Origin: an uncultured Endomicrobiia bacterium
GTDB lineage: Bacteria; Elusimicrobiota; Endomicrobiia; DTEH01
Length of the DNA: 64,000 nucleotides
Direction of reading: 5' to 3'
Assembly (NCBI GenBank): GCA_938074745.1
Contig: CALJEJ010000006.1
Span: forward strand, 18,043 to 82,042
Shown here: one piece after another, positions 868 through 58,071 of the stretch
How the letters are laid out: each line of letters opens with the position of its first letter
Position numbering within the stretch: position 1 is the stretch's first letter
Notes under the pieces: model-generated
Database searches by the model: none
The model's input: the letters and a program-made list of their open reading frames with translations, nothing else
Told to the model about the DNA's origin: nothing
Made by a program: the position numbers and the translations under genes

Positions 868-1203
868 TTAACTAACTATTTCAGATAAACGTTTTACTAA
901 CAGGGATAACTTTTGTCTTGCTAAATAAGTTTTATTCTGTAAATGAAGATAATTTTTGTAAAAATTTTGTAACCTTTTGTTTTCCTCCTCTAACGATTTG
1001 TTGTTTAAAATTAGTTGTTGTTTTTCTGCTTTCAATAGTTCTATTTTCTTAATACACTGTTGAATTTTATTTTCTAATTCTATAATATAATTTTCCAAAC
1101 TCTCAATTCTTTCAATTAGATTTATGGGTTTAATCTCCATATTTATTAATTTACAAAAGTTGGCATTAAAAGTCAATATTTCCTCTGCAAACTTCTTAAA
1201 CAT
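868..1203 (-). CDS. Coiled-coil protein of unknown function, possibly a ZapB-like partner
   Basis: 111 aa, almost entirely heptad-repeat coiled coil (IERIESLENYIIELENKIQQCIKKIELLKAEKQQLILNNKSLEEENKRLQ). It lies immediately upstream of and co-directional with the ZapA-like gene. Confidence 0.3.
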   Translation of the reverse strand: MFKKFAEEILTFNANFCKLINMEIKPINLIERIESLENYIIELENKIQQCIKKIELLKAEKQQLILNNKSLEEENKRLQNFYKNYLHLQNKTYLARQKLSLLVKRLSEIVS

Positions 1204-1274
1204 ATATTTTTTGAACCGAAATACGCTGTTTTAACATCTAATTTAACGGAGTAGTTCAAAATCTGGAGGTGAAA

Positions 1275-3902: not shown

Positions 3903-4017
3903 AATTTTATATTAATTCTTTCCTGTGGTTTCTTCATAAAATACTTTTCGTAATTTTTTTCTACTCTATTTTTCTTATCTATAGAAATTTTTATTAAAAT
4001 TTCGTATAAAATTTCTT

Positions 4018-4893
4018 ATGAATAAATATAGTGACCCTGAAATATTAAAACATTTAGACAAGATAATTTTTGAATTTAATCGTGATATAGAAGGTACACT
4101 TCCGGGTAGACACAGAAGTAAACTTATTGGTAAGTCGTTAGAGTTTGTCCAACATAGAGAATATGTTAAAGGAGATGATTTAAGATATATTGATTGGAAA
4201 GTTTATGGTAGGCGAGATAAATTTTTTGTTAAACAATACCACCAAGAAACGAACCTTGTGTGTTACATATTATTAGACTGTTCTTCTTCAATGTGGTATC
4301 CTTTAGAGAAAACAAAGTATGAATATGCTGGTGCGTTAGCTTCTTATATAAGTTACATTTTGTTAAACCAAAACGATTCTGTTGGTTTAATCAAATTTGA
4401 TAACCAAATTTTAAAAATTATCCAACCAAAATCTGGCCAAGAACAATATTATAGAATATTAGAAGAAATTAATTTAGAAACTTTTGGTGGAAAAAGTGAT
4501 TTTATAACTGTAATAAGTTTGTTAACTAAAAAATTAAGAAAATATTCGTTACTTATAATTATTTCCGACCTTATTTGTAGTCAAGAAAGTTTTCTTGTAG
4601 AGGCATTGAAAAAAATAGCATATTCAAAAATTAACATTATTGTTTTACACATAGTTTCTAAAGAAGAATATCTGTTAAATTTTGATTTAGAGAATGTTAC
4701 TTTTGAAGATGTGGAAGATAATACTAAAATTAAGACAAACATTGATGAAATAAAGTCGTTATATATTAAAGAATTTGACAGTTTACTTAAATATTATAAA
4801 ACAGAACTATATTCTGCAAATATTGGATATTTCTTTATAGACACATCTAAACCAATATTAGAAAATTTAGAATTAATAATTTACAGTCAATGA
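4018..4893 (+). CDS. DUF58 family protein (MoxR-associated vWA-like)
   Basis: Canonical DUF58 core: LIGKSLEFVQHREYVKGDDLRYIDWKVYGRRDKFFVKQYHQETNLVCYILLDCSSSM. The stop overlaps the next start (ATGA at 4890-4893). Confidence 0.8.
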   Translation: MNKYSDPEILKHLDKIIFEFNRDIEGTLPGRHRSKLIGKSLEFVQHREYVKGDDLRYIDWKVYGRRDKFFVKQYHQETNLVCYILLDCSSSMWYPLEKTKYEYAGALASYISYILLNQNDSVGLIKFDNQILKIIQPKSGQEQYYRILEEINLETFGGKSDFITVISLLTKKLRKYSLLIIISDLICSQESFLVEALKKIAYSKINIIVLHIVSKEEYLLNFDLENVTFEDVEDNTKIKTNIDEIKSLYIKEFDSLLKYYKTELYSANIGYFFIDTSKPILENLELIIYSQ

Positions 4894-6923
4894 TTTACTT
4901 TTATAATCCTTGGATATTTATTTTATTACCATTGATATTCTTACCTATATTATTACATCTTCTGTTTGAAAAAAAATCTCCAATAATTAAGTTCACATAT
5001 CTCCACTTAATAAATAAAATCTTAAAACAATTTGTCCCACGAAAACGAATTATAGATATAATTGTTTTAATTTTACGATGTCTAATAATTTTTTTAATAA
5101 TAACATATTTTGCCCGACCTGTAGGATATTTTAATCCTAAAAAAACATCTGCAATTAATATTATTTTTGCTATAGACAACTCGTTTTCTACAAAGTATAA
5201 AATAGGTAATATTTCAAAACTTGAAATGTTTAAAACATTAATAAAAAAATTGTTGAAGAGATTATCATATAAGAATGTAAGGTTTTCTACTATAATATTT
5301 AACGAAAATGTTTCACCACTGAATAGTAAGTTTGTGGTGTATAACTATGAAAATATTGCAAGTGTATTGGATAAAATTTCACCTACATATAAAGGGACTA
5401 ATTTATCTACACTGGTTCATTATGTGACAAGTATTTTTAATACTTTGGAATATAAAGATTCGCAAAACAAAGTTATTGTTTTAACAGACCTTGCAGAACA
5501 TATGTTGTCACAGAAAGAAGTGGTTATTTCCACATTTCCTCTGTATAATCAGATTGATTGGATATTTTGTTATCCTGATATATTAGGGACAAATTTTTAT
5601 GTTAAACAATTAGATATTAATAAACAAGAACCTGACATTGTGGAATTTAAGTTTGTTCCAGAAAGTAACATCAAAACTAAAACTGTTGTTAATGCAAAAT
5701 TGGTGATAAATGATACTCAAGTAGATACTATTGATATAAATTTTTCTCAAAAAGAATATAAATTTAATTACGTATTAACAAAAAATAGCAAATTTTACGG
5801 TTATATATCTTTACAAAATGATAATCTTAATGAAGATAATAATTTCTATTTTTCATTTGTAGACAAGGATAAAACACAACTGTTATGTATTGTTAACGAA
5901 CCGTTTTATATTAAAGGTATAGAAAGTAAAAAATATTATTTAGAAAAATTATCTTCTATAGGTTGGGATGTAGAAGTTATTCCTTATGAAGACGTTAATA
6001 AGGGATTTATTATAAATAAGATAAACTCAAAGGTAAAAAACATAGTTTTCGTAGATATGAATTCTTTTGAAGATATTATAGACACAACAAAACTCGAAGG
6101 CAAAAATGTCATAATTTTTCCATCTGAAAATTTGAATGTAGACTCCTATGAAAAACTTTTTAGTGGGTTAGAGTTTGTAGAACTGCAAGAAGGCAAAATA
6201 AACAATTTTAATATTTTGTTAGGTGAAGATGAACAATTTAATAATTTAGTATCACAGTTTGAGTATCAAAAAATTGTTGTTTTCCAAAAATATAGGTTGA
6301 CAATTACTTCTTCACAGAATGGTTGGAAGGTATTACTGAAATTTTCTGATGGTACACCGGCAGTGGTTAATAAAGGAAATATATATGTATTTTCGTTTTC
6401 AATTTCTAAGAAATGGAGCAATTTTGTATACAAACCACTTTTTTTAGGAATTATGAAATATATTATTGAAAGAAGTGAAAGTGAGACTAAGTATAAACAC
6501 TTTTATTTTGTTTCAGAACCAATTCCTATACTAGAAGTTTCTAAAGTATTTAGTCTTATAGAAAACAAATATGTTGATGAAGAGTTTTGGCAGAAATCGC
6601 CAGAACTAAAGATATACCGTCCTGGAATTTATAGAATAGAAACAGAAGATAAAAATCTTTTTGCAACACAGTACGTTTTTGGCATAAATATTTCACCTGA
6701 AGAAAGTAATATAAAACTTATTCCAAAAGATAAACTGAAAGATGTAATAAAAAAAATTCCAAAATGTAACGTAAGTTTTGTTAACATTCTTGAACATAAA
6801 AGTGAAGATGATATAATTAAACAATGTTTGGGTAAAGAATATTCACATAATTTGCTGAAATTGATAATTTTGTTGTTTTTAATAGAAACAATTCTTAGCA
6901 GAACAATGAGAAAAATGGTATGA
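4890..6923 (+). CDS. Membrane-anchored von Willebrand factor A (vWA) domain protein, BatA-like, with a roughly 350-aa C-terminal extension of unknown function
   Basis: Two N-terminal TM helices are followed by the MIDAS motif DxSxS (IIFAIDNSFSTKY) in vWA context. At 677 aa it is about twice the length of typical BatA. The stop overlaps the next start (6920-6923). Confidence 0.65.
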   Translation: MIYFYNPWIFILLPLIFLPILLHLLFEKKSPIIKFTYLHLINKILKQFVPRKRIIDIIVLILRCLIIFLIITYFARPVGYFNPKKTSAINIIFAIDNSFSTKYKIGNISKLEMFKTLIKKLLKRLSYKNVRFSTIIFNENVSPLNSKFVVYNYENIASVLDKISPTYKGTNLSTLVHYVTSIFNTLEYKDSQNKVIVLTDLAEHMLSQKEVVISTFPLYNQIDWIFCYPDILGTNFYVKQLDINKQEPDIVEFKFVPESNIKTKTVVNAKLVINDTQVDTIDINFSQKEYKFNYVLTKNSKFYGYISLQNDNLNEDNNFYFSFVDKDKTQLLCIVNEPFYIKGIESKKYYLEKLSSIGWDVEVIPYEDVNKGFIINKINSKVKNIVFVDMNSFEDIIDTTKLEGKNVIIFPSENLNVDSYEKLFSGLEFVELQEGKINNFNILLGEDEQFNNLVSQFEYQKIVVFQKYRLTITSSQNGWKVLLKFSDGTPAVVNKGNIYVFSFSISKKWSNFVYKPLFLGIMKYIIERSESETKYKHFYFVSEPIPILEVSKVFSLIENKYVDEEFWQKSPELKIYRPGIYRIETEDKNLFATQYVFGINISPEESNIKLIPKDKLKDVIKKIPKCNVSFVNILEHKSEDDIIKQCLGKEYSHNLLKLIILLFLIETILSRTMRKMV

Positions 6924-7681
6924 AAAGAAACAGGCGAAATAGGTTGTTAAGTTTTACAGCAGTTGTGTTGTTTGTAAGTTTTTTATTTTCTAGTGATAAA
7001 TTTGTTTTTACACAATTAAAATATAATGGTAATTGGGATCCGTATCCGCAGATATATTCAGATATATTAGAAATATTAACACTTACCACCAGTGTTCAAG
7101 TTAGTCCAAACCGCAGAATCATAGATTTGGATTTAAGTCCATATAATCTAAGAAAAGAATTATCATCTGCACCTTTTGTGATATTGTTAGGTAATGATGA
7201 AATAAAATTGTCTAATGAAGTAATTCTCATATTACGGGATTATATCATTAATGGGGGTACAATGTTTATTGAAGATATTTCGGAGTTACGTTATAGTAAG
7301 TTTGATTCTTCAATACGCAAAATTTTACGATTGATGTTTCCTGAATACAAATTAAAAAAGTCTACTCAGGAAACTGTAATAATGAAATCGTTTTATTTAA
7401 TAAGAAAAGTTACCGGTCGTGTGATATTAAACGATTATATTGAATATATAGAATACGAAAACCGTCCTGCTATAATCTATTCTCGCAACAACATAATTTC
7501 TTGTTGGGCGAGGGATAGGTTCGGAAAGTTTATTTATTCTTGTATTCCTGACGGTGAACCACAACGGTTTAATTCACAGAAGTTATTTTTGAATATAATT
7601 ATGTACTCTTTATGTGGAACATATAAAATGGACAAAGTTCACCAACCATTTATTGAAGAAAAGTTAAAACGAGGAAGATGA
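6920..7681 (+). CDS. Secreted protein, DUF4159-like (GATase1/ThuA-like fold, usually found next to vWA and DUF58 genes)
   Basis: N-terminal signal peptide (LLSFTAVVLFVSFLFS). The segment FVILLGNDEIKLSNEVILILRDYIINGGTMFIED resembles the class-I glutamine-amidotransferase-like core. The family assignment comes from context and pattern only. Confidence 0.35.
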   Translation: MKRNRRNRLLSFTAVVLFVSFLFSSDKFVFTQLKYNGNWDPYPQIYSDILEILTLTTSVQVSPNRRIIDLDLSPYNLRKELSSAPFVILLGNDEIKLSNEVILILRDYIINGGTMFIEDISELRYSKFDSSIRKILRLMFPEYKLKKSTQETVIMKSFYLIRKVTGRVILNDYIEYIEYENRPAIIYSRNNIISCWARDRFGKFIYSCIPDGEPQRFNSQKLFLNIIMYSLCGTYKMDKVHQPFIEEKLKRGR

Positions 7682-9819
7682 TATCAATAAATATTAATTT
7701 TATTTCAGTTTTATTTGTATTACTTTTTCTAATAACTACAGTATATTGGATTACAAGACCAACTTTTAAATTTAAATATTGGAAGTTATTTATTTTAAGA
7801 AGTATATTGGCGATATTACTGTTAACTTTATTATTTCAACTGAGATATAACATTGGTAATGTTAAAACAAAACCACAATTGAAACTATTGGTGGACACTT
7901 CATACAGTATGAAATTTAATAACAGAATAAACAAAGTCAAAGAATTTCTTAAGAAATATTTAGATGCATTAACCAAAGAAATGGATACTAGTATATACAT
8001 ATTTGATGAAAAACTGCACAAGGTGGATTCTATACACCAAATAACAATTTCTGCTAAGGGTACAAAAATTAATTCAGTTATAGAAGAAATTTTATATATG
8101 AGTAAAGACAATACAAACCAGACAATATTGTTATTTTCTGACGGTAAAAATGCTACTTTAGATTTGCCAGTTATAGAAAAAGAAAATGTTAGTATTATTC
8201 CAATAATATTTGAAGAGGATAATTTTAAAGATGTTTCAATATCTAATTTAAAATATAGTAGTTTAGGATTTAAAGATGTTAACTATGAAGTTGTTGTTAA
8301 ACTATTATGTTTTGGATATGAAAATCGTAATTGCAAAATTTTTTTAACTGACGTTAACTCTAAAACTACAGTTTGTGAGAAAGAAATTGTGTTGAAAGAA
8401 GGTGAAAACGAAGTGAAATTAAATTTTATCCCTAAAGAAATTGGGAAGGTTAAATATAAACTGGCAGTCCAACATTTTCCACAAGAAATAACTTATGAAA
8501 ATAACGAGGTAAATATTAATGTAGAAATAAAGAAAAATAAAATAAGAATATTATATCTTTGTGGCCAACCGTCACCTGAATATTATTTTTTACGCAACTT
8601 AATAAAAAATGATCCTAATCTTGATTTAGTATCCTTTGTAATTTTACGTAATCCTGAATCCGTAGTTATAGTTCCTGAAGATGATTTAGCATTAATTCCG
8701 TTTCCTACCTATGACATTTTTGTAAAAGAACTTTTTAATTATGATTTAGTTATATTCGAAAATTTTTCTTATAGAAAATTTGCAATACCAGTTGGGTACT
8801 TAGAGAATATTCGTCAGTTTGTTCTTTCAGGCGGCGGATTTATAATGATTGGTGGGGATAAATCGTTTTCGTTAGGTGGGTATAAATTTACACCTATTGA
8901 AGAAATTTTACCTGTGAAACTTGTTGAGATAGAAAAATTTGTTACTATGGAGTATCGTCCTGAAATAGTTAATTTTAATGACAAAATGTTAAAAGTTGTA
9001 GATGACGCTGAATTAAATAAACTAATTTGGAAAACAATACCACCACTAAACAATTATCAAACTGTAGAAAGACAACAAAATTCTACTGTTTTAATGACAT
9101 ATCGCAATGTTCCTATAATGTCTTATTGGGTTAAAGGTAAAGGTAGAGTGTTTGCTTGTGGAACAAATAGTACTTATAGATGGGTTTTAGGAAATATTCT
9201 TTCTACTGAATATGATTATAAAAAAGCATATGTTCAATTTTGGAAAAATGTAATCTATTGGTGTAGTGGTGCCGAAGATATAAAAAGTTTGTACATAGTT
9301 ACAGACAGTGACGAATATTTAATAAATGAGGTAGTAAAATTTAAATTATATTATAACATTGCTGACACTGAAATAACACAGTTGCCTGAAGTATATATTA
9401 TTCAACCAGATATGAGTAAGAAAAAATTAGAATTAAAAAAAATATCTTTAGGAACATATACAGGCGAATTTGTTGGCTCAATGATAGGTGAATATAGTAT
9501 AGTTGCTGTAGTAAATAAGTACAAAGATACTCTAAAAGATATAAAAAAAATTGTAGTGAAACAAATAAACATTAACAATCTACAAGAAATTGCTGATTTA
9601 AAATTAGACAAAGAATATTTAACAAAAATTGCTAAGTTGACCAACAACGAACCTGTTCTTTCTACAAAGTTTAATATACAAAAATTTATTTCAGATGTTA
9701 AAAATAGACATAAAAAATATTTTGTTAATTTTGTAGAAGTATACCAAAAACCGTTTCTAGGAATATTATTTATAGGATTGTTCTTAATTGAGATATTTTT
9801 AGGGAAATTTATGAAATGA
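7678..9819 (+). CDS. Membrane protein with vWA domain plus a glutamine-amidotransferase-like (ThuA/DUF1355-type) domain and a C-terminal TM anchor
   Basis: N-terminal TM helices; MIDAS DxSxS (KLLVDTSYSMKF). A later segment reads DLVIFENFSYRKFAIPVGYLENIRQFVLSGGGFIMIGGDKSFSLGGY. The C-terminal hydrophobic helix is FLGILFIGLFLIEIF. ATGA overlaps occur at both ends. Confidence 0.6.
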   Translation: MISININFISVLFVLLFLITTVYWITRPTFKFKYWKLFILRSILAILLLTLLFQLRYNIGNVKTKPQLKLLVDTSYSMKFNNRINKVKEFLKKYLDALTKEMDTSIYIFDEKLHKVDSIHQITISAKGTKINSVIEEILYMSKDNTNQTILLFSDGKNATLDLPVIEKENVSIIPIIFEEDNFKDVSISNLKYSSLGFKDVNYEVVVKLLCFGYENRNCKIFLTDVNSKTTVCEKEIVLKEGENEVKLNFIPKEIGKVKYKLAVQHFPQEITYENNEVNINVEIKKNKIRILYLCGQPSPEYYFLRNLIKNDPNLDLVSFVILRNPESVVIVPEDDLALIPFPTYDIFVKELFNYDLVIFENFSYRKFAIPVGYLENIRQFVLSGGGFIMIGGDKSFSLGGYKFTPIEEILPVKLVEIEKFVTMEYRPEIVNFNDKMLKVVDDAELNKLIWKTIPPLNNYQTVERQQNSTVLMTYRNVPIMSYWVKGKGRVFACGTNSTYRWVLGNILSTEYDYKKAYVQFWKNVIYWCSGAEDIKSLYIVTDSDEYLINEVVKFKLYYNIADTEITQLPEVYIIQPDMSKKKLELKKISLGTYTGEFVGSMIGEYSIVAVVNKYKDTLKDIKKIVVKQININNLQEIADLKLDKEYLTKIAKLTNNEPVLSTKFNIQKFISDVKNRHKKYFVNFVEVYQKPFLGILFIGLFLIEIFLGKFMK

Positions 9820-11897
9820 AAAGAGTTGTACTGTTTATTTTTATAATGAGTGTTTTTATATTTTTAATATACACAGTTTCTCCATCAGTTAATAGTGGTG
9901 ACAGTGGTGAATTTATCACTACTTCAATCACTTTAGGTATTGCACATAGTCCTGGTTATCCGTTGTATTCCTTGGTAGGGAAAATTTTTAGTTATATAAT
10001 TCCATTTGGCAACTATGCGTATAGGATAAATTTGATGAATACAGTTTTTGTAATCTTTGTCATAGTAATATTATTTTCTTTTGCAAATAATAGGAATATT
10101 TCAAGTAATGTTTTGGATATAATAAATATTCTTTCCACAATAGGTGTTTTGATATTTTCAAAATCTTTCTGGCGTAACTCTGTGCAAACCGAAGTGTTCA
10201 TATTAAATGTATTGTTTGTAGTATTAATAATCTTTATTTTGTTCTTACCAATTAAATTCGTAAAAAAATGGTGTTTAATATCATTTCTTTTTGGTATTTC
10301 TTTAGGAAACCACCATACAATAGTTTTTCTTTTGCCTGGGTTGGTATATTTATTTTTCTCTTCAAAGTCAGAGTTAACAAATTTATGGAAAGATATTTTT
10401 TTGTTTATAATCTTTTTCGTGATAGGTATAAGTGTATATACTATTCTCCCTTTAAGGTCACAAAAAAATCCCGGTCTTGACTGGGGTAACACTGAAAAAA
10501 TTGTAAATTTGTACCGTGTAATAACAAGGAAAGATTATGGTACATTCCAACTTACGGTAGAAAAACCTTTGCCACGAAATTTTGTTAATATAGTTCAACA
10601 AGTAAAACGATATATAAAACATACCTTAAATGATATTCCTTTAGCTATTGTGATTCTATGTATTTTAGGAATAGTTATAGTTTATAATGAAGATAAAAAT
10701 AAATGTTTTGCCTTAAGTACAACATTATTTCTTTGCGGGATTGGTTTTTTTATTTTAAGTAATCTTCCTTTTGAACCTATTCACGATGGAATTTTGGAAC
10801 GGTTTTATATCTTCCCCAATACGATAGTATGTATTTTTACGTTGTTATTTATAACTTCTAAAAAAAATTTTTTTTCTACTAAATTAAGAAAAGTTTTTTT
10901 AACTATAGTTTTGCTATTGTGTTTTGTGTGGAATATAACAAAAAATTATCCCTTTTGCAATTTAAGAAGTTATTACTTAAACTATGATTATGGAATGAAC
11001 ATTTTACGAACCATAGTTCCTAATGGGATATTGTTTATGGATGGTGGAGATGATACTTTTTATACCTTAGCATATTTACAATTTGCTGAAGGACGACGAA
11101 AAGATATTAGTTTACACGATCGTGGTGGTGTAGTGTTTAAAAATATTTATGGGGAAGATTTTAGACAACTCACTAAGGAAGAAAAAGAAATCAGAAGACA
11201 ACAAATAGAATCAAGTTTCTTATCGCGCAGGACAGTTTATTATTCTACTTTTAACAAAAATATTTTACCAAAAGCAACTCTTTTTCCTGTTGGAGCGTTG
11301 TACAAAGCTGTGCCAAAAGATACACGTGAAAAAATATTTCCTCACTACAGTTTTGAGTTTTATTCGTTAAGAAGTGTATATCAAGAATATGACGACTACC
11401 GTAGCAAAGCTCTTTGTCCTATATATGATTTTATTGAAGCTACAAATATTGAACCTATACAGACCAAAATTGATTTGTTAAAATACACATACCTCAGATG
11501 GCCAGAAGTGGATTGGTTAAAAAATAATGTTAGTATAGAATTGCATAATCTTGGATATAAAATGTTCAACGAAGGTGATTATAACATAACAGAAAAAATT
11601 TATAAATTTTTAATTTATATCAACCCTAAAGATATTTACGCATTACTTAACTTAGGTGTAACATATGAACGGTTAGGGAAGCTAGATTTAGCAGAACAAA
11701 CTTATAATACAGCATCTAAAATTGATCCAACAAATCCAAATACATATTATAATTTAGCAGTGCTCTACTGGAAAAAAAATGATTGGGATAATGTAATAAA
11801 ATATTTTAACAAAGTATTACAGTTACAGCCAGATAATAAAGAAGTAAAAAATTTTTTATTAAAAGCCGAAATTGAGAAAAATAAGTTAAATAAATGA
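9816..11897 (+). CDS. DUF2723 (TMEM260-like, GT-C fold protein O-mannosyltransferase-like) membrane protein with C-terminal TPR repeats, paralog 1
   Basis: Multi-pass N-terminal domain with the DUF2723/TMEM260 signatures GDSGEF...GIAHSPGYPLY and LPLRSQKNPGLDW...TRKDYGTF. The C-terminus carries TPR repeats (YYNLAVLYWKKNDWDNVIKYFNKVLQLQPDN). Confidence 0.7.
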   Translation: MKRVVLFIFIMSVFIFLIYTVSPSVNSGDSGEFITTSITLGIAHSPGYPLYSLVGKIFSYIIPFGNYAYRINLMNTVFVIFVIVILFSFANNRNISSNVLDIINILSTIGVLIFSKSFWRNSVQTEVFILNVLFVVLIIFILFLPIKFVKKWCLISFLFGISLGNHHTIVFLLPGLVYLFFSSKSELTNLWKDIFLFIIFFVIGISVYTILPLRSQKNPGLDWGNTEKIVNLYRVITRKDYGTFQLTVEKPLPRNFVNIVQQVKRYIKHTLNDIPLAIVILCILGIVIVYNEDKNKCFALSTTLFLCGIGFFILSNLPFEPIHDGILERFYIFPNTIVCIFTLLFITSKKNFFSTKLRKVFLTIVLLLCFVWNITKNYPFCNLRSYYLNYDYGMNILRTIVPNGILFMDGGDDTFYTLAYLQFAEGRRKDISLHDRGGVVFKNIYGEDFRQLTKEEKEIRRQQIESSFLSRRTVYYSTFNKNILPKATLFPVGALYKAVPKDTREKIFPHYSFEFYSLRSVYQEYDDYRSKALCPIYDFIEATNIEPIQTKIDLLKYTYLRWPEVDWLKNNVSIELHNLGYKMFNEGDYNITEKIYKFLIYINPKDIYALLNLGVTYERLGKLDLAEQTYNTASKIDPTNPNTYYNLAVLYWKKNDWDNVIKYFNKVLQLQPDNKEVKNFLLKAEIEKNKLNK

Positions 11898-13945: not shown

Positions 13946-13950
13946 TTCCA

Positions 13951-17786: not shown

Positions 17787-17825
17787 AAACGTAACTTTTT
17801 TCAAAAAAATGGAGGTGTACAAAAT

Positions 17826-18947
17826 ATGACAAAAAAAGTTTTAATTTTAACAGCGAGTTATGGTACAGGACATATCTCTGCTGCAAAATCTATAGATAAA
17901 GCATTGAAACAGTTATATTCAGATGTAGAGACAAAAATTGTGGATTTTTTATATCTTGATAAGAAACCTGAAAAGTTAACATTATTTCAAAAGATATATA
18001 ATTTCTCTATGGAAAAACCGAACCTGTGGGATGTTTTTTTCCATTTAACAAATAATAAATTTGCTGTTGCTATATTGAAATGGACGATTTTAATAAAAAA
18101 TTATCACAAAATGAAAAAGATATTTTTAGAATATAATCCAGACGTAATTATATCAACCCATATGTATTGGAATTTTATAATTGAGAAACATAAGAAAGAA
18201 AAAAATAATATTTTTTCTATTAAGAAAACTTTGAAGTATATCTGCGTAATTACAGATTCTTTTATGATACACAAATCCTGGATAAGTAAAGCTGTAGATT
18301 ATTACTTTGTAATTGATGAAGATACAAAACAAGTTGTGGTTAATATGGGTATCAAAAATATAAAAGTTACAGGTTTTCCTGTGACAGTTGAATTATCTCA
18401 AAAAATTGATAAAAGAAAAATAATATCTGAGTTAGGGTTAAAAGAAAATCTTACTACTATTTTAGTAACAATAGGTCTTGGAGCGTTGCAACGTTTCTTA
18501 GATATTATAGATTACTTAAGAATGCAAGAAAACGGTTTTCAATTGATAATAATTACTGGTAAATATGAACAAATCTACAAGAAATTGTTGGCTAAACATT
18601 ATAAAATTCCTACTGTGATAATTGGTTGGACGGACCGTATGGCTGATTTTATTCGTGTCAGTGATTTGGTAATTTGTAAAGGAGGTGGAGCAATAGTTTC
18701 TGAGTCGTTGAACGCATTTAAACCGGTTTTAATACCGACATTTGTCCCCGGCCAAGAACAAGGAAATGTATTTATAATAAAAAAATATCAATTAGGCTTT
18801 TATGCTGAAGAAAAAGAAGAGGTTTATTCAATCTTAAACCAAATAATTACTAAACAAATAGATTTAGAAAAGTATGCCCATAATATAGAAAAATATGTTA
18901 AAAAAGATTCTGCAATAAATATTGCCAGATTTATTTATAACTTGTAA
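17826..18947 (+). CDS. GT28 family glycosyltransferase (MGDG synthase / UgtP / MurG-like)
   Basis: N-terminus KKVLILTASYGTGHISAAKSI (MGDG_synth-type G-rich loop) and a C-terminal domain with ICKGGGAIVSESL. SD GGAGGTG upstream. Confidence 0.6.
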   Translation: MTKKVLILTASYGTGHISAAKSIDKALKQLYSDVETKIVDFLYLDKKPEKLTLFQKIYNFSMEKPNLWDVFFHLTNNKFAVAILKWTILIKNYHKMKKIFLEYNPDVIISTHMYWNFIIEKHKKEKNNIFSIKKTLKYICVITDSFMIHKSWISKAVDYYFVIDEDTKQVVVNMGIKNIKVTGFPVTVELSQKIDKRKIISELGLKENLTTILVTIGLGALQRFLDIIDYLRMQENGFQLIIITGKYEQIYKKLLAKHYKIPTVIIGWTDRMADFIRVSDLVICKGGGAIVSESLNAFKPVLIPTFVPGQEQGNVFIIKKYQLGFYAEEKEEVYSILNQIITKQIDLEKYAHNIEKYVKKDSAINIARFIYNL

Positions 18948-18966
18948 ATCTGTAGAATAAATTTAT

Positions 18967-21900
18967 ATGAATGTTAACGAGTATATAAAAAAAGCAAAAT
19001 TATATAGAACAACATTTTTAATTGTTCGCTATACAGTAACCACACTGAATACTATAGTAGGATGTTTTATTCTAAGTGCGTTGGTTGACGAAATTTTCCC
19101 TTTGCCGATAATCGTATTTCATATATACTGGTTTTTTATTCTCGCTTTAATAACAATTTTTTTTATAAATTTAGTATTACAACTTATCAATCTATACAAA
19201 AATCCTAAACAATATTTACAAAATGAATTAAATAAATATCCATTGTTAGATACCAAAGACAGTATAATAACTTCAGCAGAGTTAGAACAAAAACTTGAAT
19301 ATAAAGATATAAACTTTTCTAAAGAATTAGCAGAAAAGTATATAGAAAACATAATTTCAAAATTGTCCACTTTAGATTTAAAAAAAATTGTTGGCTTAAA
19401 TAAAGTATTAAAAGTTGTACCTATTAACGTTGTTTTAATATTGTTAATAATTACTCTTTACGCATTTCCACCTTTTATTCTTAAAGAGAGCGTATACAAA
19501 ATACTTTTTACTCGTAAACCTGAAATTTTGGGTTTAACGATCTATCCTAAAAATATAAAAGTTCCACTAGGGAAAAGTTGTGAAATAAAAGTTCTCGTTG
19601 ATAAACTTTATGAGTTTTATATTCCAATATTATATTTGAAATTTTACGGTACTCATCAATGGATAAGGGTAAATTTTACGAAGTATGAAATTATTTCTAA
19701 TAGAAAAATTTATATATATAAAATTGAAAATGTGGAGAACAAAATATTTTATAAGATACATTTTCGCGGGATAAGTTCAAAAGTGTATGTAATAGAACCT
19801 ATCGTTTATCCTGCAGTATCCAAACTTTCAATTTGGGTAGAACCACCGAAATATACTTCTTTAAAACCAATAGAACTACAAAGTTTTAATGAGGTTAAAT
19901 ATTTATTTGGTAGTAAAATAAAATTTGATGGCGAAACTAATAAAGAAATTGCAAAGATAAAATTGATAACTTCAAAAGGACAAGAAATAAAAATAAATGT
20001 AAAAAACAAAAATATGTTTTCTGGTGAATTCGTCGCTATAGAAAATATGGATATATGGTTTGATATTTTAGATACGGAAAATTTAAAAAATATAGATGTT
20101 GTAAAATATAGAATTAATGTTATAAAAGACCAACATCCTGAAATAAAAATTATTTCCCCTGAAGATGAAATTATAGTAGCTCAGAATAGTAAAATTACAT
20201 TAATTTACTCTGCAAAAGATGATATTGGGATCTCACAAATAAATTTGAATTATTACATAGAGAATAAAAAGTATAATAAACAAGTTTGTATAAAAAAATA
20301 TAGCTCTAATATTTGCGAAATTATAGATGAATATACATTTGATTTATCAAATTTACCCTTAAATTTTGGTGATGTAATTATTTACTATTTAACTGTTTAT
20401 GATAACGACACAGTTTCAGGTCCTAAGTCAAACATTAGTGTGAAACATAAAATTGAAATTTTTAGTTTTGAAAAACAACATCAAATGATTGAAAGACAAG
20501 TTAACGAAGTTATAGATAAAATGTTAGATTATTTATCACGAGAAATTGAATTTAAAGAACAGTTGGATAGATTAACCACTACCACAATAGATATCTCTGA
20601 AATAGATAAACTGATAAACAAAAAACAGTTGTTGAACAAAGAGTTTGAACAGTTCACTAATCAAATGAACGATATCTTATCACAGATGGCTTATGACCCT
20701 TACACTTCAGTAGATACATATATAGAGTTTAAAAGTTTTTTAACAAATATGGAAAATATTTCACAATATAGTAATCCTATGTTAATAGATAGATTAAGAA
20801 ATAAAGATATTAATAAAGCACAAACTATACAACAGGAAATTGTTGATACTTTAGAACGATTATGCTCTTTAACTACACAAATTATGAAAAAACAGAATAT
20901 GGAAAATATTGCAAATATTGCAAATGAGACATATACTTCATTAGAGCAATTGATCAATGAACTTAAAAATACTGATACAAAAATTTCTTCAGAACAACTG
21001 ACAAAATTAAATAATTTACTTTCAGAGATTGAAGAAAAACTAAAAAAAATAGCGAATATGTTACAAAACCAGCCACAATCTTTACCTGAGGAATTTATTA
21101 ATCGTAGAGATGTAAAAAATATAGATTTAGTTTCTCCACAAGAAATGTTACAAAAATTATATTCTGCAATATCTATGGGAGATATACATTCTGCATTAAA
21201 ATATGCACAACAAATGTTAACTCAGTTAGAAAGTATAATGAATATTCTTGAACAAGCAAATTCTGATATACTATCTTCAACTAGTAGTAGTTTAAAAAAA
21301 GAACTTGAAAGGTTAATGTCCGACCTTGATAATTTAATTAAATCAGAAGAAGACATTTATTCAAAAACTAAAAATTTGTTTGATTACAAACTTAACGAAT
21401 TATTAAAGAAACAAGAATCTATATTGTCAGAATTGATAAAAGATATTAACATAATAATTTCAAAAATAAATTATGTCAATTCTATAGAGGAATTGAAAAA
21501 AATAAATAATTATCCACAGTATCTATCAACAAGCCAACAGGTGTTAAAAAAACTATCAGATATTTCTTCAGAAATACATAAGAAAAAATTAATTCAAACA
21601 AAAGTGTGGTTAAAAGAAGCAATACAACTTTGGGAGATGAACTATAATATCGTTTCGCTATTAGATAAACAACTTTATTCTATAATAATAAAAGAGACAG
21701 AAGAAATATTAAACTTGATGAAAAAATTATACGATAAATTTGACTTTGAACCAAAGATCAAATTATCTCCAGAAGCTGTCAACCAAAACAACAATCTTAT
21801 TCTTGAACAACAAAAAGTTTCTAAAGCAACACAGAAATTTTATTTAGAACTAAAAAATTTTGGTAAAAAAAGTTTTATGATAACCACACAAGATTTATTT

Positions 21901-22275
21901 AATGTTAAAACAGCAAATAATAAAATGGATCAAACGATAATTTCTTTAGAGAACCAAGATTTTGATTTGGCATTAGAAAACGAAAATACAGCTATAAACT
22001 TACTTTCAGAATTACGTAATAAGTTTTCTGATATAACTCAACAGTTACAACAAATGGAACAATTGTTAGGCAAACCGATGGGTAGCAAAATACAATATAA
22101 ATCATTACCATCTGGCCAATACGGCGTTTTGTTCAGTCGAGTAAAGTTGCCTTCAGTTAAAGATTATATTCCACCAAAAGAACTACGAGAAGATATAATA
22201 AGATCGTTAAGTGAAAAATATCCTATAGAATATAATAAAATAATCCAACGGTATTATAAGGAACTGTTAAAATGA
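18967..22275 (+). CDS. Large membrane-anchored protein of unknown function (N-terminal TM hairpin, beta-rich middle region, roughly 550-aa C-terminal coiled coil)
   Basis: 1102 aa. Two N-terminal TM helices, residues about 180-520 rich in beta-strand/Ig-like patterns, then a long heptad-rich region to the C-terminus. No catalytic motif recognised. Confidence 0.5.
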   Translation: MNVNEYIKKAKLYRTTFLIVRYTVTTLNTIVGCFILSALVDEIFPLPIIVFHIYWFFILALITIFFINLVLQLINLYKNPKQYLQNELNKYPLLDTKDSIITSAELEQKLEYKDINFSKELAEKYIENIISKLSTLDLKKIVGLNKVLKVVPINVVLILLIITLYAFPPFILKESVYKILFTRKPEILGLTIYPKNIKVPLGKSCEIKVLVDKLYEFYIPILYLKFYGTHQWIRVNFTKYEIISNRKIYIYKIENVENKIFYKIHFRGISSKVYVIEPIVYPAVSKLSIWVEPPKYTSLKPIELQSFNEVKYLFGSKIKFDGETNKEIAKIKLITSKGQEIKINVKNKNMFSGEFVAIENMDIWFDILDTENLKNIDVVKYRINVIKDQHPEIKIISPEDEIIVAQNSKITLIYSAKDDIGISQINLNYYIENKKYNKQVCIKKYSSNICEIIDEYTFDLSNLPLNFGDVIIYYLTVYDNDTVSGPKSNISVKHKIEIFSFEKQHQMIERQVNEVIDKMLDYLSREIEFKEQLDRLTTTTIDISEIDKLINKKQLLNKEFEQFTNQMNDILSQMAYDPYTSVDTYIEFKSFLTNMENISQYSNPMLIDRLRNKDINKAQTIQQEIVDTLERLCSLTTQIMKKQNMENIANIANETYTSLEQLINELKNTDTKISSEQLTKLNNLLSEIEEKLKKIANMLQNQPQSLPEEFINRRDVKNIDLVSPQEMLQKLYSAISMGDIHSALKYAQQMLTQLESIMNILEQANSDILSSTSSSLKKELERLMSDLDNLIKSEEDIYSKTKNLFDYKLNELLKKQESILSELIKDINIIISKINYVNSIEELKKINNYPQYLSTSQQVLKKLSDISSEIHKKKLIQTKVWLKEAIQLWEMNYNIVSLLDKQLYSIIIKETEEILNLMKKLYDKFDFEPKIKLSPEAVNQNNNLILEQQKVSKATQKFYLELKNFGKKSFMITTQDLFNVKTANNKMDQTIISLENQDFDLALENENTAINLLSELRNKFSDITQQLQQMEQLLGKPMGSKIQYKSLPSGQYGVLFSRVKLPSVKDYIPPKELREDIIRSLSEKYPIEYNKIIQRYYKELLK

Positions 22276-23876
22276 GCTCAATATATAAAATTATTTTTTT
22301 ATTTCTATATTTATGGGTTTATAATATTGTTGCTGGTGAAATTAAAAACGAAATAAATACTGTAATATCTTTACTTGAATCAGGAAAATTTTCTGTTGTT
22401 GAAGAAAAAATAAAAAATATAGAAGAGCCAGAAGTAAAATATTATCTTACTGCACTCTATTATTTATTTACAGGCGACTATGAACAAGCAGAAAAATTTA
22501 TAAATAAAATTTCTACTACCACAAAAATTGATGAAGAAGAAATAAAATTTTATCGTGAATATATATCTAAATTAAATAAAATTATTTCTACCTACAATAA
22601 GTTTGAATCAGAACATTTTGTTGTATTTCTTAAAGGTAAAGACATTATCCTAAAAGATATTTTATTGTCAAAAATGGAACAAATATATAAGAAATATAGT
22701 AAACTTTTAGACTATGTGTTAGATACTAAAGTTCGCATTGAGGTATATAACACGAAGACAGAATTTATGTTTTGTTCTACACTTGGGGAAAAGATTGTTG
22801 AGAAGGTTGGTGTAGTTGGCATTTGTAAATTTAATCGTATAATGATTTTATCGCCAGAAAATTTGCCTTTAGGATATCGTTGGATTGACACTTTAGCACA
22901 TGAGTATATACATTTTATCTTAAACAGAATTACAGAATTTAATTTACCTTTATATCTTCATGAAGGGATAGCAAGATATTTTGATACTTTATACAGGTCT
23001 ACATATCCTTTATGTTTTACTGCAGGTAATTTGAGTTTGTTAGTTAATGCTAAAAAAAACTCTTCTATAATACCTTTTCATAACTTACGAGGTTCATTAG
23101 TATATCTTGATTCTCAAGAACAAGTTGAGCAAGCTTTTGTACAACTTGCAACTTTTATAGACTATTTGATAAAAACTTTTGGAGAAGAGAAGTTAATAAA
23201 ATTTATTACGAGTTTCAAATATAACAAAGATGACAAAGAAAATTATAAAAAAATTTATAATTCAGAATTTGAAATTTTATATTCTTCATGGTTGGATTTT
23301 ATTGATGAAAAAGAAAGTATAGTAAATCAATTTCCTGGAGCAAAACCTGATATAAAAATTGTTCAAAAGGAAGATGAAGCTAATCTTATTGGATTAACTA
23401 TAAAAGGATATATAGATTTATCTGAAAAATATGCATTGAAAAAAAATTATAAAATGGCATTACATCAATGTTATAAAGCGTTAGAAATAGAACCGTATAA
23501 TCCATTGTTAATGGTGAAAACAGCAAGATATCTTATGTTACAAAATAAGTATGAGGAGTCAGAAAATATTTTGTTAAAATGTATAAAAGCCAACCCCAAT
23601 TATGTTACTGGCTATGAGTTATTAATAAAATTATATTATGAAACAGGGATGTATGAAAAAGCCAAAGAGTTCTATAACACAATTTTAGAAATTAACCCAT
23701 TTAATTATGAAATAAGAAAACTTGTTGCAGAAATGTTTGCTGATTTAAAAAACATAAGAGAGGCTTTAGAAGAATATAAAATAGTACATATATTAAACCC
23801 TCAAGATAAAGAAACAATAGAAATTATCAATTCATTAGAAAACTATATGAAGTATAAATCAGAAATATCAAAATAA
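22272..23876 (+). CDS. Signal-anchored TPR-repeat zinc metallopeptidase-like protein (gluzincin, peptidase MA-like)
   Basis: HEXXH (LAHEYIHFIL) followed 22 residues later by the third-ligand motif HEGIARYF (EGxAxY-like). N-terminal hydrophobic anchor. The C-terminal half consists of TPR repeats, the last similar to those of the DUF2723 paralogs. The start overlaps the upstream stop (ATGA). Confidence 0.55.
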   Translation: MSSIYKIIFLFLYLWVYNIVAGEIKNEINTVISLLESGKFSVVEEKIKNIEEPEVKYYLTALYYLFTGDYEQAEKFINKISTTTKIDEEEIKFYREYISKLNKIISTYNKFESEHFVVFLKGKDIILKDILLSKMEQIYKKYSKLLDYVLDTKVRIEVYNTKTEFMFCSTLGEKIVEKVGVVGICKFNRIMILSPENLPLGYRWIDTLAHEYIHFILNRITEFNLPLYLHEGIARYFDTLYRSTYPLCFTAGNLSLLVNAKKNSSIIPFHNLRGSLVYLDSQEQVEQAFVQLATFIDYLIKTFGEEKLIKFITSFKYNKDDKENYKKIYNSEFEILYSSWLDFIDEKESIVNQFPGAKPDIKIVQKEDEANLIGLTIKGYIDLSEKYALKKNYKMALHQCYKALEIEPYNPLLMVKTARYLMLQNKYEESENILLKCIKANPNYVTGYELLIKLYYETGMYEKAKEFYNTILEINPFNYEIRKLVAEMFADLKNIREALEEYKIVHILNPQDKETIEIINSLENYMKYKSEISK

Positions 23877-23885
23877 TATAAATTT

Positions 23886-25367
23886 ATGGATAAAGAAGTA
23901 TATCTTCAACTAAGGGAAAAATATAAAAAGATAAAACCAGATAGAGTAAAAGAAAATATATCAGAATATTCACTTAAGGAACAAACAATTGCAGAAATAT
24001 GGTATAAATCTCTATTTGATAGACGTAATTTAACTTCTGTTGATGGAAGAAAAGTAATTATTGTTTCTGTTGGAGAGTATAATACTGTTTCTGTTCCAGA
24101 TTTTGTCAATGCTAAGATAATAGTTGATGGTAAAGAGTATAGTGGTGACGTAGAAGTCCATAAAAACAGATCAGACTGGTTTAAACATAAACACCATAAG
24201 AATTCTCTATATAAAAATGTTATACTCCATGTGTTTTACAATAACGATACTAGAACTCCAGTAAAAGAAGATATTATTGAACTATGTTTAAAAGATAGAA
24301 TTAATCCAGAATTTTTTGAAGAAGACAGCGAGTTATTTTATTCTTCTAAAGAAAGTCTCTGTGGTAAATCTATACAAATTAAAGATTATAATTTGTTAGA
24401 ACAACTGATTTTATCTGCAGCTGAAGCTAGGTTGAATATTAAATCAGAACAATTTTTTTGTTGGTTCAAAACTAAAACAAAAGAAGAACAGATGTTATAT
24501 GAACGTATCTGTGAAACATTTGGATATTCAAACAATAGAGATAATTTTTTGTTGATATCAAAAATTGCACCTATAAAGAAAATTAGAAAAATTGTTAAAC
24601 GATACAGACTTAAAGAACAAAAAATTATTGTTGATACGATATTTTTTTGTGTTAGTGGATTGTTAAATAGAAAAGATGTTTTAGAACATTTACCACAATA
24701 TTATATTAGTCTTAAAACATTGTGGGAAAAAGAGATAAAAAAATATTTTAAAAAAACAATAGATTCGTCAAGATGGAGATATTACAAGACTCGTCCTGTA
24801 AACTATCCTGAACGTAGAATTGCTGCATTGTCAATGTTTGTTTCTAAAATTATTAATGTTGAACTACAAAAACTTTTGTTAGGATTAATTAAACTCAAAG
24901 ATGAAAAAGATATTCTAGTTCATATAAAAAATTTTTTATACCAGCCGCCAGAAGGTTATTTTGCTAAACATTGCAGGTTTGGCGGGAAAGAATTTTCTCG
25001 CGAATATCCTCTTTGGGGTATGGAAAAAGTTAGTTCATTGTTAGCAAATGTTATATTCCCATATCTTGTTTATAAATCAAAACAAACTAAAGATGAACAG
25101 TTATATAAAAAAGTAATAAAAATATATACTTTACTAGATATAAAAGAGAAAAACAGTATTGCAGAAAAATTTCTCTCATCTATTATACTTTATCCAGAAT
25201 ATAGAAAATATTTTTTGTCAAAAAACATTTTTATTCAAGGCTTACTACAGATATATAAAGATTTTTGTGAACCTAATAGAGGTATATGTAAAAATTGTTT
25301 TCTGCCTGAAATATTAAAATATGAAATTAATCAAGAGGATAAATCAATAAAATTTTTAGAGTTGTAA
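23886..25367 (+). CDS. Hypothetical protein (493 aa), family not recognised (possibly DUF2851-like; low confidence)
   Basis: Long ORF with ATG start, co-directional and closely spaced with the upstream block. No diagnostic catalytic motif seen. Cys pairs CGKS and CKNCF lie near the ends. Confidence 0.4.
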   Translation: MDKEVYLQLREKYKKIKPDRVKENISEYSLKEQTIAEIWYKSLFDRRNLTSVDGRKVIIVSVGEYNTVSVPDFVNAKIIVDGKEYSGDVEVHKNRSDWFKHKHHKNSLYKNVILHVFYNNDTRTPVKEDIIELCLKDRINPEFFEEDSELFYSSKESLCGKSIQIKDYNLLEQLILSAAEARLNIKSEQFFCWFKTKTKEEQMLYERICETFGYSNNRDNFLLISKIAPIKKIRKIVKRYRLKEQKIIVDTIFFCVSGLLNRKDVLEHLPQYYISLKTLWEKEIKKYFKKTIDSSRWRYYKTRPVNYPERRIAALSMFVSKIINVELQKLLLGLIKLKDEKDILVHIKNFLYQPPEGYFAKHCRFGGKEFSREYPLWGMEKVSSLLANVIFPYLVYKSKQTKDEQLYKKVIKIYTLLDIKEKNSIAEKFLSSIILYPEYRKYFLSKNIFIQGLLQIYKDFCEPNRGICKNCFLPEILKYEINQEDKSIKFLEL

Positions 25368-57972: not shown

Positions 57973-57980
57973 TTTAATTT

Positions 57981-58053
57981 GTCCCCATAGCTCAATTGGA
58001 TAGAGCACAAGCCTCCGGAGCTTGGGATCGGGGTTCAAATCTCCGTGGGGACA
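57981..58053 (+). tRNA. tRNA-Arg (anticodon CCG), 73 nt, 3' CCA not encoded
   Basis: Manually folded. Acceptor GTCCCCA/TGGGGAC; D-arm GCTC-AATTGGATA-GAGC; anticodon stem CAAGC/GCTTG with loop CTCCGGA (U33, CCG at 34-36); 4-nt variable loop; T-arm CGGGG-TTCAAAT-CTCCG; discriminator A. The next bases are TTG, not CCA. Confidence 0.85.
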
Positions 58054-58071
58054 TTGTTTTAGGTAAAAAAT

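Follow-up and report, generated by a model that had tools for sequence, protein, structure and literature searches.

This analysis concerns a block of 12 genes at positions 4018 to 25367 of a 64-kb stretch of DNA from an uncultured Endomicrobiia bacterium; the whole of that stretch is referred to below as the window. All 12 open reading frames (ORFs) listed by an earlier, sequence-only reading are present on the + strand where it had placed them, and the ATGA stop/start overlaps that it reported at 4890, 6920, 7678, 9816, 11894, 16146, and 22272 can be read in the sequence. Each of its domain and family calls was also upheld by profile searches against Pfam and NCBIfam. The best non-self homologues share 50 to 56% identity and come from Endomicrobia/Elusimicrobiota metagenome-assembled genomes (MAGs); taxon labels here and below are those of the deposited MAGs. 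We read the block as one operon-like unit composed of two separable conserved modules, a Bat-like module and a glycosylation cassette nested inside it, a reading to which, taken jointly with the mechanism proposed below, we give slightly less than even confidence.

The first module (module 1) is an envelope module of the MoxR/vWA Bat-like kind, which is widespread, sits in the inner membrane, and faces the periplasm; its members are MoxR (where present), DUF58, BatA-VWA, DUF4159, VWA-GATase1_like, DUF4175, and Peptidase_MA-TPR proteins. All six non-ATPase members of this extended module are found in canonical order in the window. The DUF58 protein (4018..4893; 291 aa; Pfam DUF58, 121 bits) is encoded by the first gene of the module in the window's lineage; it has no transmembrane segment (TM), and its metal ion-dependent adhesion site (MIDAS), D87-x-S-x-S, is kept in at least 90% of 40 homologues. 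It is followed by a protein that joins a BatA_N double-TM anchor to a vWA domain (4890..6923; 677 aa; Pfam BatA and VWA_2, TIGR02226), with a conserved MIDAS (D96-x-S-x-S) and a predicted topology in which two N-terminal TMs and one C-terminal TM flank a periplasmic part of 584 aa. The DUF4159 protein (6920..7681; 253 aa; Pfam DUF4159, 85 bits) carries an N-terminal signal or anchor and is predicted to be periplasmic. Wherever the upstream sequence is long enough to show it, its gene nearly always lies immediately 5′ of the GATase1_like gene, and this is so in every phylum sampled. A look-up of the exact protein sequence gave no recorded match. The 5′ half of the module is closed by the GATase1_like membrane protein (7678..9819; 713 aa; Pfam GATase1_like, with a weak VWA_2 match), in which MIDAS residues D73/S75/S77 are invariant or nearly so. 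Between the TM anchors, an AlphaFold 2 model of this protein (predicted local distance difference test [pLDDT] score, 84) has a vWA domain and then a class-I-GATase-like domain, each followed by a beta-sandwich (residues 185 to 285 and 538 to 628, respectively), and its Foldseek matches include STM3548/STM1381, CARDB/Ig-like sandwiches, and the ANTXR2 vWA domain.

The 3′ half of module 1 opens with a protein of 1,102 aa (18967..22275) that the sequence-only reading had described as a coiled-coil membrane protein. A membrane protein with a long helical part it is, and it can now be named DUF4175 (Pfam, 63 bits, with a weak Big_7 match); the predicted structure consists of three N-terminal TMs and a periplasmic part of ∼940 aa that is first beta-rich and then helical over a long stretch. 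Its conserved partner is a Peptidase_MA_2 gluzincin with C-terminal TPR repeats (22272..23876; 534 aa; Pfam), predicted to be periplasmic, in which the HEYIH motif at 210 to 214 and E231 are conserved. The junction between the two genes is overlapping in 34 of 63 cases, nearly always by 4 nt. Hydropathy and the positive-inside rule predict a cytoplasmic DUF58 protein and place the large domains of the BatA-VWA, DUF4159, GATase1_like, DUF4175, and peptidase proteins in the periplasm. This topology agrees with that of the Borrelia vWA protein BB0173, which is periplasmic by experiment (PMC5700661).

A further link among members of module 1 comes from gene fusions. The BatA_N-VWA and DUF4159 proteins, encoded by separate overlapping genes in the window, are fused in one ORF of ∼900 to 980 aa in 12 Elusimicrobiota-type loci (L005 [882-3599], L025, L044, L054, L067, L069, L072, L074, L075, L080, L087, and L088; eleven labeled Elusimicrobia and one unlabeled). 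Such fusions are Rosetta-stone evidence for joint action of the two proteins and support a physical complex within module 1. As for the components of classical Bat systems, BatD (PF13584) gave no match in any protein of the block, and separate BatC/BatE TPR proteins are absent from it, unlike in a planctomycete locus (L007).

The second module (module 2), the glycosylation cassette, occupies the space between the GATase1_like and DUF4175 genes and comprises genes for three GT117-TPR proteins, one PMT_2 glycosyltransferase of the GT-C fold, and one GT28 glycosyltransferase (GT). The GT117 (TMEM260-like; DUF2723) proteins, each combining a GT-C fold with a C-terminal TPR domain, are paralog A (9816..11897; 693 aa; predicted catalytic residues D29/E32), paralog B (11894..13945; 683 aa; D27/E30), and paralog C (13951..16149; 732 aa; D27/E30). 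Their Pfam scores of 101.8, 72.2, and 83.9 bits, respectively, all exceed the PF11028 gathering cutoff of 24.2 bits. In phmmer searches, all three matched the structure of human TMEM260 (9rql_A) over ∼430 residues (A, 9.6e-44; B, 6.5e-34; C, 5.8e-36), and a profile of A-type proteins covered the whole GT-C domain of 9rql at an E value of 2.7e-79. D29 of A, D27 of B, and D27 of C align with the catalytic Asp52 of TMEM260 within a shared motif, GDSGE...AHxPGYPL. In TMEM260, a protein O-mannosyltransferase that acts on Ig-like IPT domains, the D52A substitution abolishes activity, and Asp52 corresponds to Asp77 of PMT1 (PMC10214176). Among the family members that we collected, the catalytic Asp, the next Glu, and ∼10 other residues of the GT-C core were invariant in 62 of 62. 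Judged by sequence, then, the three paralogs are GT117 members in every defining feature that can be checked, and by analogy with TMEM260 they would be protein O-mannosyltransferases.

The paralogs are only 27 to 29% identical to one another, yet across genomes A is orthologous to A, B to B, and C to C, position for position, which points to an ancient and nonredundant set. Loci with two GT117 genes hold A- and C-type copies, with B confined to triplet-bearing lineages. The family itself is large (8,517 cluster representatives at an E value of ≤1e-10). No function of a bacterial member is described in the searchable literature, where DUF2723/GT117 is mentioned only in the TMEM260 study, which remarks merely on "distant homologs in bacteria" (PMC10214176). 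The sequence-only reading had supposed that TPR repeats were fused to GT-C enzymes here in place of BatC. This idea found no support: a GT-C domain followed by TPR repeats is the family-wide GT117 architecture, human TMEM260 included, and the Bat-like module retains a TPR protein of its own, Peptidase_MA-TPR.

The fourth GT-C enzyme (16146..17786; 546 aa) belongs to the PMT_2 superfamily, with scores of 49.1 bits for PMT_2 (cutoff, 26.1) and 23.4 bits for PMT (cutoff, 22.7). It lacks TPR repeats, and D34-E35 in its first loop is conserved in 5 of 5 orthologues, so that all four of the GT-C enzymes recognized from the sequence have intact catalytic motifs (Asp/Glu in the three GT117 proteins, D34-E35 in this one). 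The label "GT39/PMT-like" given by the sequence-only reading needs narrowing: the PMT_2/PMT domain and the loop 1 DE are there, but no MIR domain was matched in Pfam at an E value of ≤0.01, and we therefore call the protein a PMT_2-superfamily GT-C enzyme and not a canonical GT39 member. A search with it against PDB sequences gave no match at an E value of ≤0.1. In structural comparison, the top matches include ArnT, AftB, and AftA.

The last gene of the cassette encodes a cytoplasmic GT-B enzyme of the GT28/MGDG-synthase type (17826..18947; 373 aa; Pfam MGDG_synth, 71 bits, and Glyco_tran_28_C). Both Pfam domains score above cutoff, and the NCBIfam equivalog for diglucosyl-diacylglycerol synthase scores 145 bits against a cutoff of 500. 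We rejected the possibility that this enzyme is MurG, since MurG proper is encoded at 49871-50974 in the dcw cluster. In the cassettes of three relatives (L006, L098, and L103) there is a full-length GT2 resembling ArnC and PgfS; ArnC is the closest match (205 bits for L006 and 171 bits for L098) and PgfS the second best. GT2 enzymes of the ArnC/PgfS-like class make the polyprenyl-phosphate-sugar donors used by GT-C enzymes. The slot before DUF4175 is occupied by this GT2 in L006 (20096-21034) and L103 (4322-5251), by the GT28 in the clade of the window, and by the two of them in L098 (4477-5421 and 5437-6555). From this alternation, the step that supplies lipid-linked sugar appears to have been swapped or supplemented in evolution.

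To place the block in a wider context, GTDB species genomes were scanned with a GATase1_like alignment, and the 80 resulting loci were annotated with hidden Markov models (HMMs) built from the window and from Pfam-labeled relatives; counts from this census are not phylogenetically independent. The census indicates that the neighborhood is conserved far beyond close relatives and that DUF2723-TPR genes recur beside Bat-like genes. Among Elusimicrobiota loci with enough downstream sequence, GT117 genes lie downstream of GATase1_like in 23 of 26, starting within 300 nt in 18, compared to 0 of 37 loci outside the phylum (Myxococcota, Brocadiia, Nitrospinota, Tectomicrobia, and others). A relative with 54% identity (L001) has the window's order from DUF58 through a 1,094-aa protein matched by the DUF4175 model. 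A deeply diverged Endomicrobiales MAG (L006), with 29% identity in GATase1_like, has the order MoxR-DUF58-BatA/VWA-DUF4159-GATase1_like-3xGT117-PMT_2-GT2-DUF4175, and an Elusimicrobia MAG of 54% GC (L005) has the BatA/VWA/DUF4159 fusion followed by GATase1_like-2xGT117-DUF4175-peptidase.

In loci without glycosyltransferases (for example, L016, L020, L030, L031, and L039), the order is (MoxR)-DUF58-BatA-DUF4159-GATase1_like-DUF4175-(x)-Peptidase_MA/TPR or its circular permutation, DUF4175-peptidase-MoxR-DUF58..., and a peptidase-anchored scan of metagenomes added ∼14 loci of the nonpermuted order and ∼25 of the permuted one. Because DUF4175 and the TPR gluzincin are present in GT-free loci of many phyla, they are ancestral Bat-like members and not add-ons; it is the glycosyltransferase cassette that is nested inside. 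The peculiarity of Elusimicrobiota is that this cassette was inserted between GATase1_like and DUF4175 and has been retained there.

Two features of the GT-free loci were noted in passing. In ∼25 non-Elusimicrobiota metagenome loci (L127 and L134-L167), DUF4175, Peptidase_MA/TPR, and MoxR follow one another with 4-nt overlaps, so that the DUF4175-peptidase pair heads a MoxR operon; the DUF58 HMM left the gene after MoxR unlabeled. Where GATase1_like adjoins DUF4175 (L016, L020, and L108-L136), ∼1.0 to 1.7 kb, presumably one gene, separates DUF4175 from the peptidase.

The junctions around the insertion are tight. Without an intervening cassette, the gap between GATase1_like and DUF4175 is 7 to 13 nt in 15 of 18 loci; with one, the junction from GATase1_like to the first GT gene is overlapping or within ∼90 nt in 24 of 32, and that from the last GT gene to DUF4175 is ≤22 nt in 17 of 20. 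In loci of high GC content, some ORFs were called too long at the 5′ end, and some negative gaps in these statistics are exaggerated as a result. Tight junctions are kept in genomes from 28% to nearly 70% GC, and the nest persists while upstream flanks differ among lineages. Cassettes differ in content, with GT117 genes numbering two or three and PMT_2, an ArnC-like GT2, and GT28 each present in some only, but the insertion site is constant.

The sequence-only reading had called the module MoxR-less. For the window this holds, as Pfam found no AAA_3/MoxR domain among ORFs of at least 100 aa (at least 120 aa beyond position 30,000). It does not, however, characterize the system: of 23 Elusimicrobiota loci whose upstream sequence is long enough to tell, 19 have MoxR immediately before DUF58. 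The other four (L009-L012), L001, and the window together make up the window's own clade of Endomicrobiia, and the absence of MoxR is therefore a derived loss from the cluster. No MoxR elsewhere in these MoxR-less Endomicrobiia was found among the best 120 homologues of the L006 MoxR, which reach only to 64% identity. At the place that MoxR takes in other Elusimicrobiota, 115 nt upstream of DUF58, the window has a gene for the AAA+ disaggregase ClpB (1269-3902). We rejected ClpB as a substitute AAA+ partner, as the adjacency is absent in L001, L006, and L009-L012 and is probably coincidental.

The 12th gene of the block, for a 493-aa protein that the sequence-only reading had listed as an unknown member, encodes a DUF2851 protein without TMs (23886..25367; Pfam, 226 bits). 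It turns out to be a clade-restricted neighbor: the gene comes after the peptidase in Endomicrobiia-type loci alone (L089-L092, L094, L096, and L097), lies upstream on the opposite strand in L100, and is absent from L098, L101, and L106, although the CCA-M50-TrpRS-ScpAB genes are kept in those three. DUF2851 is thus probably a mere neighbor outside the system. In L096, L098, L101, and L106, where peptidase identity is only 32 to 38%, the peptidase gene is followed by the run CCA-M50-TrpRS-ScpA-ScpB.

The layout of the window tempers what can be drawn from the co-directional run that the sequence-only reading had emphasized. The run is real but not specific to the block, because nearly the whole window is encoded on the + strand and is tightly packed throughout, with a median intergenic gap of 7 nt. 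Overlapping junctions show a modest enrichment (7 of 11 in the block versus 8 of 33 elsewhere in the window; Fisher P = 0.028). The only free-standing − strand ORFs are at 533-844, at 868-1203, and at 36219-37091 (panC), and three more lie wholly within + strand genes. A positive GC skew in 31 of the 32 2-kb bins and a cumulative skew that climbs almost monotonically, together with the strand bias, fit a long leading-strand stretch with neither origin nor terminus inside it.

What might these two modules do together? We propose that a cytoplasmic glycosyltransferase (the ArnC-like GT2 in relatives; here the GT28, an enzyme encoded elsewhere, or both) would charge a membrane lipid carrier, most likely undecaprenyl phosphate, with a sugar. 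The lipid-linked sugar would then be flipped to the periplasmic face, where the GT-C enzymes, using the Asp/Glu of the first periplasmic loop, would transfer it to acceptors selected by the TPR domains. By homology to TMEM260, these acceptors would most likely be Ser/Thr residues of folded envelope proteins, and the likeliest candidates may be the module's own periplasmic beta-sandwich domains (GATase1_like, BatA-VWA, and DUF4175) or clients of the module. The two Ig-like beta-sandwiches of GATase1_like speak for the module's own proteins, given that TMEM260 acts on Ig-like IPT domains.

The case for coupling is that the nest splits an otherwise contiguous operon and that both gene sets are predicted to face the periplasm. 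Because transcription must pass through the cassette if the two halves of module 1 are to be co-expressed, co-expression of the glycosyltransferases with the Bat-like module is likely. That one module depends functionally on the other stands at about even odds, and functional coupling as such is plausible but unproven. Gene content, homology, catalytic residues, fold, and the nesting with its conservation are observed; the donor lipid and sugar, a protein as acceptor, co-transcription, and functional dependence are all points that we infer. The sequence-only reading had pointed to a periplasmic protein-glycosylation or quality-control machine. Its coupling, its protein acceptor, and a role in quality control are all still conjectural: each module also occurs alone, and the conserved gene order runs on into CCA/M50/TrpRS/ScpAB.

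Several observations weigh against our reading. The window contains no GT2 match by HMM in any of its 64 kb, hence no ArnC-like donor synthase in the block, and the block has no flippase, its packing being too tight for an unannotated flippase gene; the sugar, the lipid carrier, and the acceptor are proposed by analogy. Enzymes of the PMT_2/ArnT type often modify lipids or glycans, not proteins. Consensus scans of positions 3700-23600 found promoter-like signals at chance level (129 versus 141 in shuffles) and terminator-like signals likewise (4 versus 3.9), the latter at no gene boundary; such scans are uninformative in DNA of 28% GC, and co-transcription is put forward from gene arrangement. 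Within the phylum, two loci carry the GT117 triplet without Bat-like genes (L002, with PMT, and L003), and three carry the Bat-like module without GT117 (L028, L050, and L067). Fusions of a GT domain with a Bat-module domain were looked for in ∼160 loci and are absent, in contrast to the 12 BatA-VWA/DUF4159 fusions. Finally, the conserved order extends to the downstream housekeeping genes, whose synteny is conserved just as well as the nest, and synteny alone is therefore no proof of coupling.

L002 lies at the same chromosomal site as L006 and is a natural "module 1 deletion" there. The two loci (L002:1-18484 and L006:1-20106) have in common upstream genes for LolA, RodZ, a radical-SAM protein, a CDP-OH transferase, PgpA, a beta-lactamase-fold protein, and Xer. 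At that site L002 lacks MoxR-DUF58-BatA-DUF4159-GATase1_like and has instead genes for a beta-lactamase-fold protein, NlpC/P60, and an Na/H exchanger.

These separations are what one would expect of two independent systems brought together by a "frozen" insertion, in which the cassette landed in the Bat-like operon of an early Elusimicrobiota ancestor and stayed there through rare rearrangement in the region, perhaps helped by a convenient strong envelope-gene promoter, with acceptors unrelated to the MoxR/vWA module. The long-range synteny with unrelated housekeeping genes, the co-directional and tightly packed character of the whole window, the triplets without Bat-like genes, the Bat-like modules without GT genes (including all 37 non-Elusimicrobiota loci), and the lack of intermodule fusions would all be accounted for. 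We nevertheless consider such an explanation unlikely, if worth taking seriously. The insertion splits module halves that otherwise sit 7 to 13 nt apart, and the new junctions are themselves tight over the whole GC range; the nest is conserved where upstream flanks are not; and genes have come and gone within the cassette, which itself has stayed at the site throughout.

A second alternative accepts the enzymes as active but gives them a nonprotein envelope molecule to modify, as in ArnC/ArnT, GtrB/Gtr, or CsbB/YfhO. Candidate acceptors would be lipid A or the lipopolysaccharide (LPS) core, a glycolipid product of the GT28, peptidoglycan, or some other polymer, and the TPR domains would dock the enzymes to partner proteins and take no part in acceptor selection. 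The closeness of the relatives' GT2 to ArnC, the place of ArnT, AftB, and AftA among the top structural matches, and the glycolipid-synthase type of the GT28 are all consistent with it. So is the setting: the organism is a diderm, since BamA, OmpH, and LpxC are encoded in the window, and it has LPS genes. What makes this alternative improbable in our estimation is that the GT117 proteins are related in sequence, and not by fold alone, to a proven protein O-mannosyltransferase, whose catalytic Asp and loop 1 motif they keep, and that the characterized TPR-bearing GT-C enzymes (TMTC1-4 and TMEM260) act on proteins. The second-best match of the GT2, PgfS, serves protein glycosylation and likewise counts against a nonprotein acceptor.

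It is very improbable that the GT117-TPR proteins are catalytically dead scaffolds giving a BatC/BatE-type TPR function to the Bat-like complex: TPR proteins are regular in classical Bat operons (such as L007) and there are weak NCBIfam TPR matches to Leptospira BatC, but the catalytic Asp/Glu and core residues of GT117 proteins are invariant over deep divergence, the module already has its own TPR protein, and GT117 triplets persist where Bat-like genes are absent. An anti-phage defense role was also rejected; seven block proteins searched against PADLOC-DB gave 0 matches at an E value of ≤0.001.

Returning to the coupled reading, its most specific form would have GT117 A, B, and C act as a hetero-oligomeric, domain-specific protein O-glycosyltransferase, in the manner of Pmt1-Pmt2, on the Ig-like/beta-sandwich domains of the module or on its clients. 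This is speculative, and we regard it as rather doubtful. If true, the TMEM260 pathway would have its first counterpart in bacteria, and the MoxR/vWA envelope module would be a glycoprotein machine in Elusimicrobiota, one that in Endomicrobiia operates without its AAA+ ATPase.

Even in its general form, the arrangement matters for both gene sets. The sole member of GT117/DUF2723 characterized in the searchable literature is the human disease gene TMEM260, and MoxR/DUF58/vWA Bat-like envelope modules, known since 1999, are to our knowledge still without a mechanism. Phylum-wide nesting with tight junctions links these two large sets of bacterial genes of unknown function and provides a specific hypothesis for experiments on either: there are candidate acceptors for the glycosyltransferases and, for the envelope module, a possible posttranslational modification step. 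The lineages that have lost MoxR are a natural set for asking what the ATPase contributes. The arrangement further suggests that O-glycosylation of the TMEM260 type, catalytic loop included, is older than the eukaryotes.

Elsewhere, the window also encodes the dcw cluster, pyrimidine genes, BamA, and LpxC. An ORF of 558 aa at 34481-36157 has no Pfam match at an E value of ≤1e-5, and a 743-aa protein (31738-33969) has as its sole matches weak HEAT/Arm repeats near the C terminus; between the two lies a gene for a 168-aa AhpC/TSA-type redoxin. The − strand ORFs upstream of clpB (533-844, 103 aa; 868-1203, 111 aa) are without Pfam matches. A tRNA-Arg(CCG) at 57980-58054, between alaS and bamA, is the sole Rfam or ARAGORN match in the window.

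How does the block compare with systems already described? With the Bat/MoxR-vWA operons of Bacteroides fragilis (BatI), Leptospira, Borrelia, and Rhizobium leguminosarum (RL3499-RL3502), it has in common DUF58, a BatA_N-anchored vWA protein, and the membrane-anchored, periplasm-facing position of the vWA domain; MoxR is common to those operons and most Elusimicrobiota relatives but absent in the window's lineage. The RL3499-RL3502 phenotype reportedly concerns envelope integrity and cell morphology (title of a paper cited in PMC5700661). Unlike classical Bat systems, module 1 has no short BatB-type vWA protein and no BatC, BatD, or BatE, and has instead DUF4159, VWA-GATase1_like, DUF4175, and Peptidase_MA-TPR; loci in Myxococcota, Brocadiia, Nitrospinota, and Tectomicrobia show this variant as well. 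We know of no described Bat locus that contains glycosyltransferases. In three-component systems of periplasmic glycosylation (GtrA/GtrB/Gtr, ArnC/ArnT, CsbB/GtcA/YfhO, and Streptococcus mutans PgfS/PgfM1/PgfE/PgfM2), a GT2 makes a polyprenyl-phosphate-monosaccharide, which is flipped and used by a GT-C enzyme for transfer outside the cytoplasm. The cassette follows the same logic, and those of relatives hold an ArnC/PgfS-like GT2, whereas the window's cassette has neither GT2 nor GtrA-like flippase but four GT-C enzymes (three with TPR repeats) and a GT28. Relative to PMT/POMT enzymes (GT39) and actinobacterial Ppm1/Pmt, the PMT_2 protein is without the MIR domain of GT39 PMTs, and the relationship to TMTC1-4 (GT105) is architectural only.

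Human TMEM260 (CAZy GT117; PDB 9rql/9rqm/9rqn; PMC10214176) is homologous over the whole GT-C domain and likewise carries TPR repeats C-terminal to the TM bundle. The enzymes described here differ in being bacterial, in forming three ancient tandem paralogs accompanied by a PMT_2 enzyme, and in being embedded in a MoxR/vWA operon; the donor, which is dolichyl-phosphate-mannose for TMEM260, would here be a bacterial polyprenyl-phosphate sugar. The sequence-only reading did not recognize the composition of the block as described, and a Bat-like operon with GT-C genes was indeed not found in the searchable literature. The arrangement is a new combination built from known kinds of genes.

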